Positions 11,633 through 60,365 of a stretch of DNA of 64,000 nucleotides are shown piece by piece. The translations under genes and the position numbers were made by a program. The first letter of the stretch is position 1. Each line of letters starts with the position of its first letter. The notes beneath the pieces are model-generated. The model was not told where the DNA came from, searched no databases, and saw only the letters and a program-made list of their open reading frames with translations. This stretch comes from Escherichia coli. Its GTDB lineage: Bacteria > Pseudomonadota > Gammaproteobacteria > Enterobacterales > Enterobacteriaceae. Location: assembly GCF_003334405.1 (NCBI RefSeq), contig NZ_QOWM01000010.1; one strand, written 5' to 3'.

Positions 11633-12523
11633 ATGATGTTTAAGCAATACCTGCAAGTAACGAAACCAGGCATCATCTTTGGCAACCTGATCTCGGTGAT
11701 TGGGGGATTCCTGCTGGCCTCAAAGGGCAGCATTGATTATCCCCTGTTTATCTACACGCTGGTTGGGGTGTCACTGGTTGTGGCGTCGGGTTGTGTGTTT
11801 AACAACTACATCGACAGGGATATCGACAGAAAGATGGAAAGGACGAAGAATCGGGTGCTGGTGAAAGGCCTGATCTCTCCTGCTGTCTCGCTGGTGTACG
11901 CCACGTTGCTGGGTATTGCTGGCTTTATGCTGCTGTGGTTTGGCGCGAATCCGCTGGCCTGCTGGCTGGGGGTGATGGGCTTTGTGGTTTATGTCGGCGT
12001 TTATAGCCTGTACATGAAACGCCACTCTGTCTACGGCACGTTGATTGGTTCGCTCTCCGGCGCTGCGCCGCCGGTGATCGGCTACTGTGCGGTAACCGGT
12101 GAGTTCGATAGCGGCGCAGCGATCCTGCTGGCTATCTTCAGCCTGTGGCAGATGCCTCACTCCTATGCCATCGCCATTTTCCGCTTTAAGGATTACCAGG
12201 CGGCAAACATTCCGGTATTGCCAGTGGTAAAAGGCATTTCGGTGGCGAAGAATCACATCACGCTGTATATCATCGCCTTTGCCGTTGCCACGCTGATGCT
12301 CTCTCTTGGCGGTTACGCTGGGTATAAATATCTGGTGGTCGCCGCGGCGGTTAGCGTCTGGTGGTTAGGTATGGCTCTGCGCGGTTATAAAGTTGCTGAT
12401 GACAGAATCTGGGCGCGCAAGCTGTTCGGCTTCTCTATCATCGCCATCACTGCCCTCTCGGTGATGATGTCCGTTGATTTTATGGTACCGGACTCGCATA
12501 CGCTGCTGGCTGCTGTGTGGTAA
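11633..12523 (+). CDS. cyoE: heme O synthase (protoheme IX farnesyltransferase), 296 aa
   Basis: ORF track 11588..12523 trimmed to ATG at 11633 ([13 protein letters not shown]); UbiA-family prenyltransferase. Confidence 0.93.
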
Positions 12524-12671
12524 CAAAACCTCTCTATTAAAAAGGTGCTACGGCACCTTTTTTCTTAGCATTAGAAACATATCCCTCTCGAAATATTTAC
12601 TAAAAAATCCGCATGTTTACCCCATTCGTTTGCCGCTTTACACTAGTCGCGAATTTAAAACAGAGGTGGTA

Positions 12672-14044: not shown

Positions 14045-14140
14045 GCGAATTGCCTGCTGCGCTACGCTTATCAGGCCTACAAAGTTTCTGAATTACAAAC
14101 CTTTGTAGGCCGAATCAGGCGTTCATGCCGCATCTGACAT
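14045..14140. repeat. REP/BIME palindromic units (two inverted REP-like copies)
   Basis: GCCTGCTGCGCTACGCTTATCAGGCCTAC (about 14050..14082) and inverted TTTGTAGGCCGAATCAGGCGTTCATGCCGCATCTGACATG (about 14102..14139), in the convergent yajR/yajQ spacer. Confidence 0.6.
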
Positions 14141-14822: not shown

Positions 14823-16287
<1,465 letters not shown>

Positions 16288-16302
16288 TGTCGGATGCGGC
16301 AA

Positions 16303-16328
16303 ACGTCGCATCTGACCAGATGCGACGT
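16303..16328. other. perfect 12-bp inverted repeat (hairpin) between convergent yajL and thiI
   Basis: ACGTCGCATCTG-AC-CAGATGCGACGT; no flanking T-run on either strand, so REP-like stem-loop rather than canonical intrinsic terminator. Confidence 0.4.
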
Positions 16329-16340
16329 AAAAACCACAAA

Positions 16341-17789
16341 TTACGGGCGATATACCTTCACATTGTTAAAGCCCTGCTCGCGCAGATAGAGCGCCTGCAG
16401 ACGGCTCATCACCCCGCGCTCACACCACAGCAGCCAGGTTTTGTTCTGGTCGAGATCGCCAAATTTGGTGCTCAGTTTATAGAACGGCAGAGAAACCACA
16501 TCAATCCCTTCGACTTTCAGTGGCTTATCTTCCTGTTCATCGATAGAACGGATATCGAGGATCACGTCGTTCGGGCCGAAGCCATTGACGGTTTCCACTT
16601 CCACCACTTCCTGCTCGGTCTGCTGGGCGATTTCGCGGATATCAACGTTATTCGCTTCCTCAACCACTTTATCGAGAATGCTGAAGTCGAACTTCTCTTC
16701 TTCCGCTTCAATCTTCGATTTAACTGCTTTCACCGTCGGGCTTTTGGAGATCACACCACAATATTCCGGCATCGTGCGAGCAAAGTCTTCGGTGCCAATC
16801 TGGCGGGCCAGGTTGATGATGTGCTCTTTGTCGTAAGAGATCAGCGGACGCAGGATCAGCGTGTCGGAGACGTTATCAATCAGGCGCAGGTTGGTCAGCG
16901 TCTGGCTGGACACCTGGCCGAGCGCTTCGCCGGTGACCAGCGCCTGTACGCCGTAACGTTCAGCCACTTTAGATGCGGCACGCACCATCATACGTTTGAG
17001 GATAACGCCCATCTGACCGTCGTCGATTTTCTCGAGAATTTCCCCGACGACCGGTTCGAAATTAATAGCGACAAAACGCACGCGGTGGGAGCTGCCAAAG
17101 CGGTTCCACAGATAATGCGCCACCTGACGCACGCCAATTTCATGCGCCGCGCCGCCGAGGTTAAAGAAGCAGTAATGCACGCGGCAGCCGCGACGCATCA
17201 ACATATAACTGGAAACACCGGAGTCGAAACCACCGGAAATGAGCGACAGCACATCTTCCTGGGTGCCGATCGGGAAACCGCCAATACCTTCGTAGCGGCC
17301 TTTAATCAGCAGGAGACGATCGTCTTCCACTTCCAGATGGACAGTCACATCCGGATTGGTCAGCTTCACGCGCGCGGATTCAATATGCTGATTTAAACCG
17401 CCGCCGACGTAACGTTCCACATCAATCGAGCTAAAATCATGTTTGCCACGGCGCTTCACGCGTACGCAGAAGGTTTTGCCTTCCAGCTGATCGCGATACT
17501 GAACCAACGCTTTCTCGAAAATATCGTGCATGTCGGTAAACGGCACGTCTTCGACTTCGAGAATATGGTGGATACCCGGAATACGGGTCAGAGCGTCGCG
17601 AATAGCCAGACGCTGGTTTTCATCTTTTGCGCGAACTTCGATGTTATCCCAGTGGCGGACGACAGCGAGCGTCTCATCATAGTGCTTTAAAACGTTACGA
17701 ATGTTCCCGGTAAGGATTTTTATAAAGCGCAAGCGCACAGATTGGCTTTTGATGGTGATTTCCGGGAACAATTTAATGATAAACTTCAT
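16341..17789 (-). CDS. thiI: tRNA 4-thiouridine synthase ThiI (with C-terminal rhodanese domain)
   Basis: ORF track 482 aa; PP-loop SGGFDS, C-terminal rhodanese-like segment; start codon confirmed at 17787..17789. Confidence 0.96.
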
Positions 17790-38367: not shown

Positions 38368-38402
38368 AATAAAAAACCACGGGGCATCGCAGCCCCGTGG
38401 TT
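38368..38402 (-). terminator. intrinsic terminator after brnQ
   Basis: CCACGGGGC-loop-GCCCCGTGG hairpin followed by T7 on the minus strand, immediately upstream of the proY start. Confidence 0.65.
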
Positions 38403-38421: not shown

Positions 38422-39741
38422 TTAGTGAGCGCTGGAGGTCACCTGACGACCTGCCGCGCGATCCCAGATAATGGCCAGAACCACCATCACCACTGTTGGC
38501 ATTAACCACGCCAGACCTTGTTCGGCCAGCGGTAAACGCTGCGCCCAGGACGGTAAGATATCGCTGAATGCAGATGCTTTGATCCCGTCGAGAATACCAA
38601 AAAGCAGGCTGATAAACATCGGCGGAGCAATCACGCGGGACGAATTATGCCACCATGAGCGTGTAAAACTTAATACAACCAGTGCGATACACGGCGGATA
38701 AATAGCGGTCAGCACCGGTACGGAGATCTGGATCAGCTGGCTTAAGCCGAGGTTAGAAACCACCATCGAGAAGCCGCCGAGGATAAACACCAGCGTACGA
38801 TAAGAGAGCGGTACGTACTGGGCAAAGAATTCTGCACAAGCACAGGTCAGGCCAACTGCCGTTACCAGGCAGGCGATGAAGATTAACGCCGCCAGCAGGA
38901 AGCTACCGCCGCCGCCAAAGGTGTGCTGAACGTAAGCATGCAGAATAGCAGCGCCGTTTGCAGACTGATCGACCAGCGACGCGCTGTCTGACCCCAGACG
39001 GAACAGCGCCAGGTACAGCAGAGTCAGACCAACACCCGCCATCAGGCCAGCCCAGACGGTATAACGGGTCAGCAGACGCGCTTCGGTAACGCCACGAGAA
39101 CGCGCCGCGTTAACAATAACGATACCAAACACCATTGCGCCCAGCGTATCCATGGTCAGATAGCCGTTAACGAAGCCGTTAGAAAACGCAGCGTTTTGAT
39201 AAGCCTCAGTCGCCGTGCTGATAGAACCCGCCGGCCAGACAATAGCGGCAACAGACAGGATGACCAGCGCGATAATTTTCAGCGGCGCAAGGAAGTTGCC
39301 CACGGTATCCAGCAGCTTGCCCGGATAGAGCGAAACCAGAATAACGATAGCGAAATAGACCAGGCTGTAGATAAACAGCGGCAGCGCGGAATCACCCGTC
39401 AGCGGCGCAATCCCCACTTCAAAGGAAACGGTAGCTGTACGCGGCGTAGCGAAAAGCGGCCCCACCGCCAGGTAACAAACCGTTGCCAGCAGTACGCCAG
39501 CGACTTTACCGATTGGCGTGCTGAGGCTGTCAACACCGCCGCCAACTTTTGCCAGCGCCACTACCGTTAATACCGGCAGGCCAACGGCAGTAATGAGGAA
39601 GCCGAATGCCGCAGTCCAGACGTGTTCGCCTGCCTGTAAGCCGACCATTGGAGGGAAAATAATGTTACCTGCGCCGACGAACAACGCAAATGTCATAAAG
39701 CCCAGAGCGATGATATCGCGCGATCTTAATTGATGGGTCAT
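38422..39741 (-). CDS. brnQ: branched-chain amino acid transporter BrnQ
   Basis: ORF track 439 aa, recognised as BrnQ (LIVCS family). Confidence 0.96.
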
Positions 39742-48051: not shown

Positions 48052-48256
48052 TCATTACTTATTGCCGGATGCGGCGTGAACGCCTTATCCGCCCTACGCG
48101 GTTCTGGCACATTTTGCAGGCCTGATAAGACGCGGCAAGCGTCGCATCAGGCATCGGAGCACTTATTGCCGGATGCGGCGTGAACGCCTTATCCGGCCTA
48201 CGGTTCTGGCACCTTTTGTAGGCCTGATAAGACGCGGCAAGCGTCGCATCAGGCAT
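48052..48256. repeat. BIME cluster: two tandem ~100-bp units, each with a convergent pair of REP palindromes
   Basis: Unit A 48052..48153 and unit B 48160..48256 are near-identical (TTATTGCCGGATGCGGCGTGAACGCCTTATCCGGCCTACG ... GTAGGCCTGATAAGACGCGGCAAGCGTCGCATCAGGCAT). Confidence 0.8.
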
Positions 48257-50224: not shown

Positions 50225-50242
50225 TTGCTGATTTTCCTTTAA

Positions 50243-50275
50243 TGCCGGATGCGACGCCTGCCGCGTCTTATCCGG
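50243..50275. repeat. REP palindrome after rdgC
   Basis: GCCGGATGCGACGCCTGCCGCGTCTTATCCGGC. Confidence 0.6.
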
Positions 50276-50381
50276 CGTACGAAGCCACACCAGGCATATA
50301 ATTATTCGCTACGGCGAGCAATAATTTTTAGCGCAGCAATATTATGCGTTTTACGCTGTAACTTGCTCCATGGACGTTGTG

Positions 50382-60307: not shown

Positions 60308-60365
60308 GTTTTACATTGTCAGATGCGGCCTGAAACGCCTTATCTGGCCTGACATTCCTGTTTGA

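Follow-up and report, generated by a model that had tools for sequence, protein, structure and literature searches.

The locus and its hairpin

In the 64,000-nt stretch of Escherichia coli DNA analyzed here (the window), yajL, which encodes a protein/nucleic acid deglycase (15691-16287, + strand; the start is annotated 6 nt later in MG1655), and thiI, which encodes the tRNA 4-thiouridine synthase (16341-17789, - strand), are convergent genes separated by a spacer of 53 nt (16288-16340) that reads tgtcggatgcggcaaACGTCGCATCTGacCAGATGCGACGTaaaaaccacaaa and is bounded by the yajL stop codon TAG at 16285-16287 (+) and by the end of the thiI open reading frame at 16341-16343 (-). The upstream gene panE (14823-15734) extends 38 nt past the annotated start of yajL (15697-15734; MG1655 443604-443641), which fits co-transcription of panE and yajL. 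K-12 MG1655 has the same spacer, letter for letter, and positions are converted as window = 459338 - MG1655, which places the palindrome described below at MG1655 443010-443035.

A repeat search found two arms of 12 nt each at 16303-16314 (ACGTCGCATCTG) and 16317-16328 (CAGATGCGACGT), 100% complementary and 2 nt apart, confirming the perfect 12-bp palindrome that an earlier note on this DNA had reported in the convergent spacer within 16297-16330. Nowhere else does the window contain a perfect hairpin whose arms reach 12 bp or more with a loop of 10 nt or less; in 100 dinucleotide-preserving shuffles of the window, such hairpins numbered 0.04 on average and never more than 1. A loop of 2 nt cannot form for steric reasons, so that the palindrome in RNA amounts to an 11-bp stem closed by a 4-nt loop (-17.4 kcal/mol); the folding z-scores range from -3.5 to -5.4, and 0 of 200 shuffles fold equally well. 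On the thiI side, 12 nt separate the stop codon from the hairpin foot; on the yajL side, the distance from the stop codon is 15 nt to the palindrome and 1 nt to an alternative stem described in the next section.

The hairpin has one of the two hallmarks of an intrinsic terminator, a GC-rich stem-loop (11-bp stem, 75% GC, and -17.4 kcal/mol in a published table), but not the other, a U-rich tract of 7-8 nt directly after the stem. The stem is followed by TTTGCC on the thiI-sense strand and by AAAAACC on the yajL-sense strand (the post-stem sequences taken for the U-tract test were UUUGCCGC and AAAAACCA, respectively), and a consensus terminator scan of 15600-17000 found no stem-plus-T-run site on either strand. 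The absence of a U-tract stated in the earlier note holds for both strands, and an intrinsic terminator was rejected for this reason. The element shares with canonical bidirectional intrinsic terminators its position in the spacer and its perfect-palindrome form but differs from them in lacking the U-tract on both strands. An Rfam scan of the same interval, with E values up to 10, gave three chance matches only, all outside the spacer.

The palindrome is part of a degenerate REP

The palindrome is not new: it is part of REP39, which is already cataloged in EcoCyc and is a degenerate copy of a common repeat. The EcoCyc coordinates of REP39, as given in a published table, overlap the mapped hairpin region by 20 nt, and the REP-like unit at 16284-16316 (+) is probably what EcoCyc calls REP39. 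This degenerate Z1-like unit is in the GTAG-first orientation, with GTAG, one T, and an imperfect palindrome. On the + strand the order is GTAG (16284-16287, one base from the stem foot and overlapping the yajL stop TAG), T, GTCGGAT, and then GCGGCAAACGTCGCATCTGAC, which is identical at 18 of 21 positions to the Z1 unit GCGGCAAGCGTCGCATCAGGC in an alignment to recognizable REPs of the window (48061-48256, 28265-28301, 50241-50281, 60316-60351, 14104-14140, and 22182-22220); 13 consecutive bases (CAAACGTCGCATC) are common to the element and REP15.

The unit resembles the Y, Z1, and Z2 REPs of E. coli in being an extragenic imperfect palindrome in the 3' untranslated region, here between convergent stop codons, in having a length within the usual 30-40 nt (about 33 nt counting the GTAG tail), in carrying GTAG by the stem foot, and in its Z1-like core. 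It differs from them in several respects. The 5' arm lacks about 5 nt of its Z1 counterpart (AAGAC), so that the two-base stem bubble is lost and both arms are of the GATGCG type, and a third, inverted arm makes the perfect palindrome. The exact sequence is single-copy per genome. Similarity to the REP consensus does not extend over the full length: with an nhmmer profile built from 12 seeds, in which recognizable REPs score 23-42 bits, the locus gave half-length matches only, at 16299-16317 (+; 11.3 bits, E 0.041), 16331-16316 (-; 8.5 bits, E 0.3), and 16307-16288 (-; 7.0 bits, E 0.9), that is 7-11 bits against at least 23, and an earlier 8-seed profile gave E values of 0.4-0.8 only. The characterization as REP-like in the earlier note was right, since the palindrome overlaps a curated REP and is a Z1-like remnant with a GTAG tail and an extra inverted arm.

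Read at the level of sequence, the element is three copies of one REP arm motif, ACG(T/C)CGCATC(T/C)G(A/G)C, of which the outer left and middle copies form the REP-like stem and the middle and right copies the perfect palindrome. The REP-like stem pairs a 5' arm at 16289-16298 (GTCGGATGCG) with a 3' arm at 16307-16316 (CGCATCTGAC), 10 nt each, 90% complementary with one G.T mismatch, and 8 nt apart. Because 16307-16316 overlaps the left palindrome arm, which thus doubles as the 3' arm of the REP-like unit, the REP stem and the palindrome hairpin are mutually exclusive; the right palindrome arm is the additional, inverted copy of the arm motif. On yajL RNA the REP stem grows to 12 bp with two G.U pairs and a loop of AAAC. 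The palindrome hairpin is identical when read from either strand, whereas the G.U-containing REP stem folds well only on yajL RNA. A BIME was considered and rejected: the second unit is not a full REP but an arm of 12-16 nt, and it adjoins the first directly, without a linker.

The RefSeq record of MG1655 carries no REP feature anywhere, even at an obvious four-REP BIME, and its silence at yajL-thiI is therefore uninformative. A literature search for thiI, yajL, and REP jointly returned nothing relevant, a search on the name REP39 returned staphylococcal plasmid replicon types only, and the text of the RepRanger supplements contains neither the yajL and thiI genes nor the palindrome sequence.

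Conservation in Escherichia and replacement in other genera

Of 5,426 complete E. coli genomes, 5,425 match the 331 bases around the site, with identities of 90-100% and always between yajL and thiI. A 30-nt query centered on the palindrome likewise found one locus each in 5,425 of the 5,426 genomes, 3,212 of them perfect over the aligned 28-30 nt and 2,213 with one mismatch. Seven E. coli strains chosen to span the identity range all agree in the inner 24 nt of the palindrome but differ at six other spacer positions and at the outermost pair; CFT073 has a 13-bp palindrome, and strain H2 has a perfect REP stem. A close Escherichia relative (L009:3950-4011, recorded as E. coli strain SCPM-O-B-8794) has a spacer of 62 nt with ACGTCGCATC-GTGCCG-GATGCGACGT, a 10-bp palindrome with a 6-nt loop and the canonical REP head GCCGGATGCGACG. 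In this relative yajL appears to stop 9 nt further out, at a TGA, and the TAG that in K-12 shares bases with the GTAG of the REP is replaced.

Outside Escherichia, the sequence is not conserved, yet a strong stem-loop is present in the spacer of every relative examined. The automatic best-hairpin classification of these spacers often merged adjacent elements and was used for stem-loop presence only; the element types were assigned by reading the sequences. Salmonella enterica subsp. arizonae and Citrobacter carry inverted REP pairs between thiI and yajL; Enterobacter, Cedecea, and Buttiauxella carry other repeated palindromes; and Klebsiella, Kosakonia, Leclercia, Pectobacterium, Dickeya, Lonsdalea, and Franconibacter carry bidirectional terminators of the A-tract/stem/T-tract form in the orthologous spacer. 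We conclude that this position needs a hairpin and that unrelated hairpins (REP remnants, BIMEs, and classical terminators) replace one another over evolution, so that the yajL-thiI spacer illustrates how one intergenic position can be refilled while the need for a hairpin persists.

Two other features of these loci were observed. In two Enterobacter sp. loci (L068:3947-4214 and L075:3947-4210), the thiI-yajL spacer has grown to about 260 nt through four to five tandem units of about 50 nt, each holding the palindrome CCCTCTCCCT-GAAG-GGAGAGGG. In L010, L015, L018, L020-L022, L024, L025, and L058, mostly Citrobacter, yajL lies about 1.2 kb past the thiI end instead of 50-100 nt, which suggests that something was inserted between the two genes. 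In 16 other loci, yajL was not found within 2.5 kb of thiI.

Published transcript ends at the hairpin

The hairpin is already known as a curated REP and also as a published transcript-end site in the best-studied bacterium. A 2026 preprint intersected the EcoCyc REP coordinates with 306 U-less bidirectional terminators between convergent genes, defined by earlier full-length RNA sequencing. In its SEnd-seq-derived table, row 31 gives an overlap region of the thiI and panE-yajL transcripts of 36 nt at MG1655 443004-443039 (window 16299-16334), with the sequence GGUUUUUACGUCGCAUCUGGUCAGAUGCGACGUUUGC, a stem of 11 and a loop of 4 at -17.4 kcal/mol, 0 A in the 5' flank and 2 U in the 3' flank, the class gene_convergent_transcription, log and stationary phase, the genes yajL:panE:thiI, and REP39 as convergent with an overlap of 20 nt. 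According to this table, the thiI RNA ends near 16299 and the yajL RNA near 16334, respectively 4 and 6 nt past the stem, so that the 3' ends of both convergent transcripts flank one stem-loop; these mapped ends come from one data set, through the derived table. The curated list of dominant 3' ends from Term-seq (Adams et al. 2021) has no entry at MG1655 442980-443059. The earlier note had made its reading depend on 3' ends at the hairpin and on conservation of the palindrome, and the outcome favors it, because ends map there and the palindrome is conserved across E. coli. Its wording that the palindrome acts "rather than" as a terminator went too far, given that the hairpin is among the 306 listed U-less bidirectional terminators.

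Rho-dependent termination and the preferred mechanism

In an independent bicyclomycin experiment, peaks of Rho termination regions lie beyond the hairpin on both strands (Adams et al. 2021, supplementary file 2). For thiI-sense read-through, the peak is at 16110 on the - strand (MG1655 443228 +), antisense to yajL, with a score of 3.64 and p 1.2e-6; the reads upstream/downstream are 78/23 in untreated cells and 96/103 with bicyclomycin. For yajL-sense read-through, it is at 16621 on the + strand (MG1655 442717 -), antisense to thiI, with a score of 4.94 and p 6.4e-8 and with reads of 78/15 untreated and 99/94 with bicyclomycin. Measured from the mapped RNA ends, the Rho regions lie downstream by roughly 70-190 nt for thiI-sense and 290 nt for yajL-sense transcription. 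The downstream/upstream ratio of about 1 when Rho is inhibited suggests that few polymerases stop at the hairpin by itself. Over the first 100 nt downstream, the two transcribed strands have C/G ratios of 1.7 and 2.0, compared with 1.06 for the window. As the Rho regions are antisense to yajL and thiI, transcription of each convergent gene enters the other gene before Rho stops it.

Stem-loops that lack a U-tract, including REPs, have been described as processed ends, with Rho acting downstream and exonucleases then shortening the RNA as far as the stem-loop (Peters et al. 2012; Dar and Sorek 2018). The yajL-thiI hairpin is like these protective stem-loops in having no U-tract, 3' ends just after the stem, C exceeding G downstream, and Rho-sensitive read-through; it differs in that a single hairpin would serve two convergent transcripts. 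Read-through followed by Rho termination and trimming back to a protective hairpin is the mechanism that we prefer for both transcripts, at a probability of roughly 0.55. REP39 would then be a decayed derivative of a REP, fixed at this locus within the 3' region that the thiI and panE-yajL transcripts share, and the transcript of either strand would fold the same Watson-Crick hairpin (11 bp, 4-nt loop), fixing the stable 3' end of both mRNAs. From the lack of a U-tract, we infer that most RNA polymerases would read through the hairpin; Rho would release them within a few hundred nt, while they transcribe the opposite gene in antisense and the RNA is not translated. The RNA would then be trimmed by 3'-to-5' exonucleases up to the hairpin, which would shield the coding part. 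The suggestion of an RNA stabilizer made in the earlier note is thus plausible and is the one preferred here, on the basis of RNA 3' ends about 4-7 nt outside the stem together with Rho regions further downstream.

Several points weigh against Rho termination with trimming. The Rho data are low read counts (15-103) in 800-nt windows, and bicyclomycin leads to pervasive antisense transcription, which could inflate the downstream counts. In the genome-wide data reported for terminal REPs, these elements were not associated with longer mRNA half-lives. In addition, the authors of the class to which the site is assigned call such bidirectional terminators Rho-independent and invoke collisions between RNA polymerases.

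Possible alternative roles of the hairpin

Polymerase collision is the main rival to Rho termination with trimming and, in our judgment, a possible but less favored explanation. By analogy with the class, the hairpin would pause the polymerases transcribing thiI and panE-yajL at defined positions, head-on collision would block read-through, and trailing polymerases would dislodge the collided complexes, with neither a U-tract nor Rho being needed. The locus is similar to the overlapping bidirectional terminators (Ju, Li and Liu 2019; Wang et al. 2022 preprint) in having a stem-loop without A- or U-tracts and a 36-nt overlap in two growth phases, and row 31 of the derived table, where the overlap is centered on the stem-loop, carries the label gene_convergent_transcription. 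Single-molecule work has also shown that collisions are not positioned without a nascent stem-loop, and both RNAs fold the same hairpin from the perfect Watson-Crick palindrome, as the model requires. However, whereas the class is described as Rho-independent, yajL-thiI has bicyclomycin-defined Rho regions just downstream on both strands, with a downstream/upstream ratio of about 1 under Rho inhibition, and both genes are modestly expressed (read counts below 100 in the bicyclomycin data set), a situation of low polymerase traffic in which the collision model predicts low efficiency. Two public data sets, the SEnd-seq class and the bicyclomycin experiment, diverge at this locus, and its modest value is as a test case of whether U-less hairpins between convergent genes are collision-driven terminators or exonuclease barriers behind Rho termination.

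An effect on translation, which could add to either 3'-end mechanism, seems unlikely. By analogy with other REPs, terminating ribosomes would stall at the hairpin, leading to mRNA cleavage and less ThiI and/or YajL. REPs closer than 16 nt to a stop codon have been reported to reduce translation, and the hairpin lies within this distance of both stop codons (12 nt for thiI; 15 or 1 nt for yajL, depending on the stem); genome-wide, however, REP-bearing convergent pairs have higher, not lower, RNA levels.

It is more doubtful still that the three REP half-arms make the two mRNAs fold differently, thiI RNA as the palindrome only and yajL RNA as either the palindrome or the 12-bp REP stem, which could separately tune 3'-end protection or translation termination. 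The symmetry of the palindrome could then stem from template-switch correction of a REP remnant, an idea drawn from the 10-bp, 6-nt-loop version with the canonical GCCGGATGCGACG head in the close Escherichia relative.

A role at the DNA level, as a site bound or cleaved by TnpAREP (RAYT), gyrase, or another protein, or as a cruciform, is very improbable. TnpAREP acts on REPs, IHF and gyrase bind to BIMEs, and GTAG stands 1 nt from the stem foot here. TnpAREP, however, needs a mismatch in the stem, a perfected palindrome having abolished binding and cleavage, and the canonical two-base bubble is missing at this locus; the element, with no second full REP and no linker, is not a BIME; its sequence occurs once per genome; and there is no promoter context between the convergent stop codons. 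A transcription-factor operator was rejected for this last reason, and the protein-binding palindrome offered in the earlier note as an alternative finds no support. A chance palindrome without function is hardly credible: in its favor are the shortness of the element and the ability of template-switch repair to perfect a palindrome in the absence of selection, but shuffled windows average just 0.04 such hairpins, 5,425 of 5,426 genomes retain the core even though the flanks vary, and RNA ends map to the hairpin.

Other palindromes and REPs in the window

The mak-araJ spacer holds a four-unit BIME at 48061-48256, in the order Y, inverted Z1, Y, and inverted Z1, with profile scores of 36-42 bits. 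Single REP units lie at 14104-14140, 22182-22220 (REP38 in the published table), 28265-28301, 50241-50281 (REP34 in the same table), and 60316-60351, and those at 14104 and 60316 have the variant head GTCAGATGCGGC, as does the yajL-thiI element. Three shorter perfect palindromes were also observed. The first, at 12539-12562, is a 10-bp palindrome (AAAAAGGTGC-TACG-GCACCTTTTT) with an A-tract and a T-tract, just past an open reading frame that ends at 12523, and has the form of a classical bidirectional intrinsic terminator. The second, at 28210-28236, is an 11-bp palindrome (AAATGCCGGGA-TTTAT-TCCCGGCATTT) that lies 30 nt from the REP at 28265 and corresponds to row 29 of the bidirectional-terminator table (MG1655 431093-431125; yajD:tsx:secD:secF). 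The third, at 38375-38402, is also of 11 bp (AACCACGGGGC-ATCGCA-GCCCCGTGGTT), is followed by TTTTTT on the - strand, and resembles an ordinary intrinsic terminator of the - strand gene at 38422-39741.
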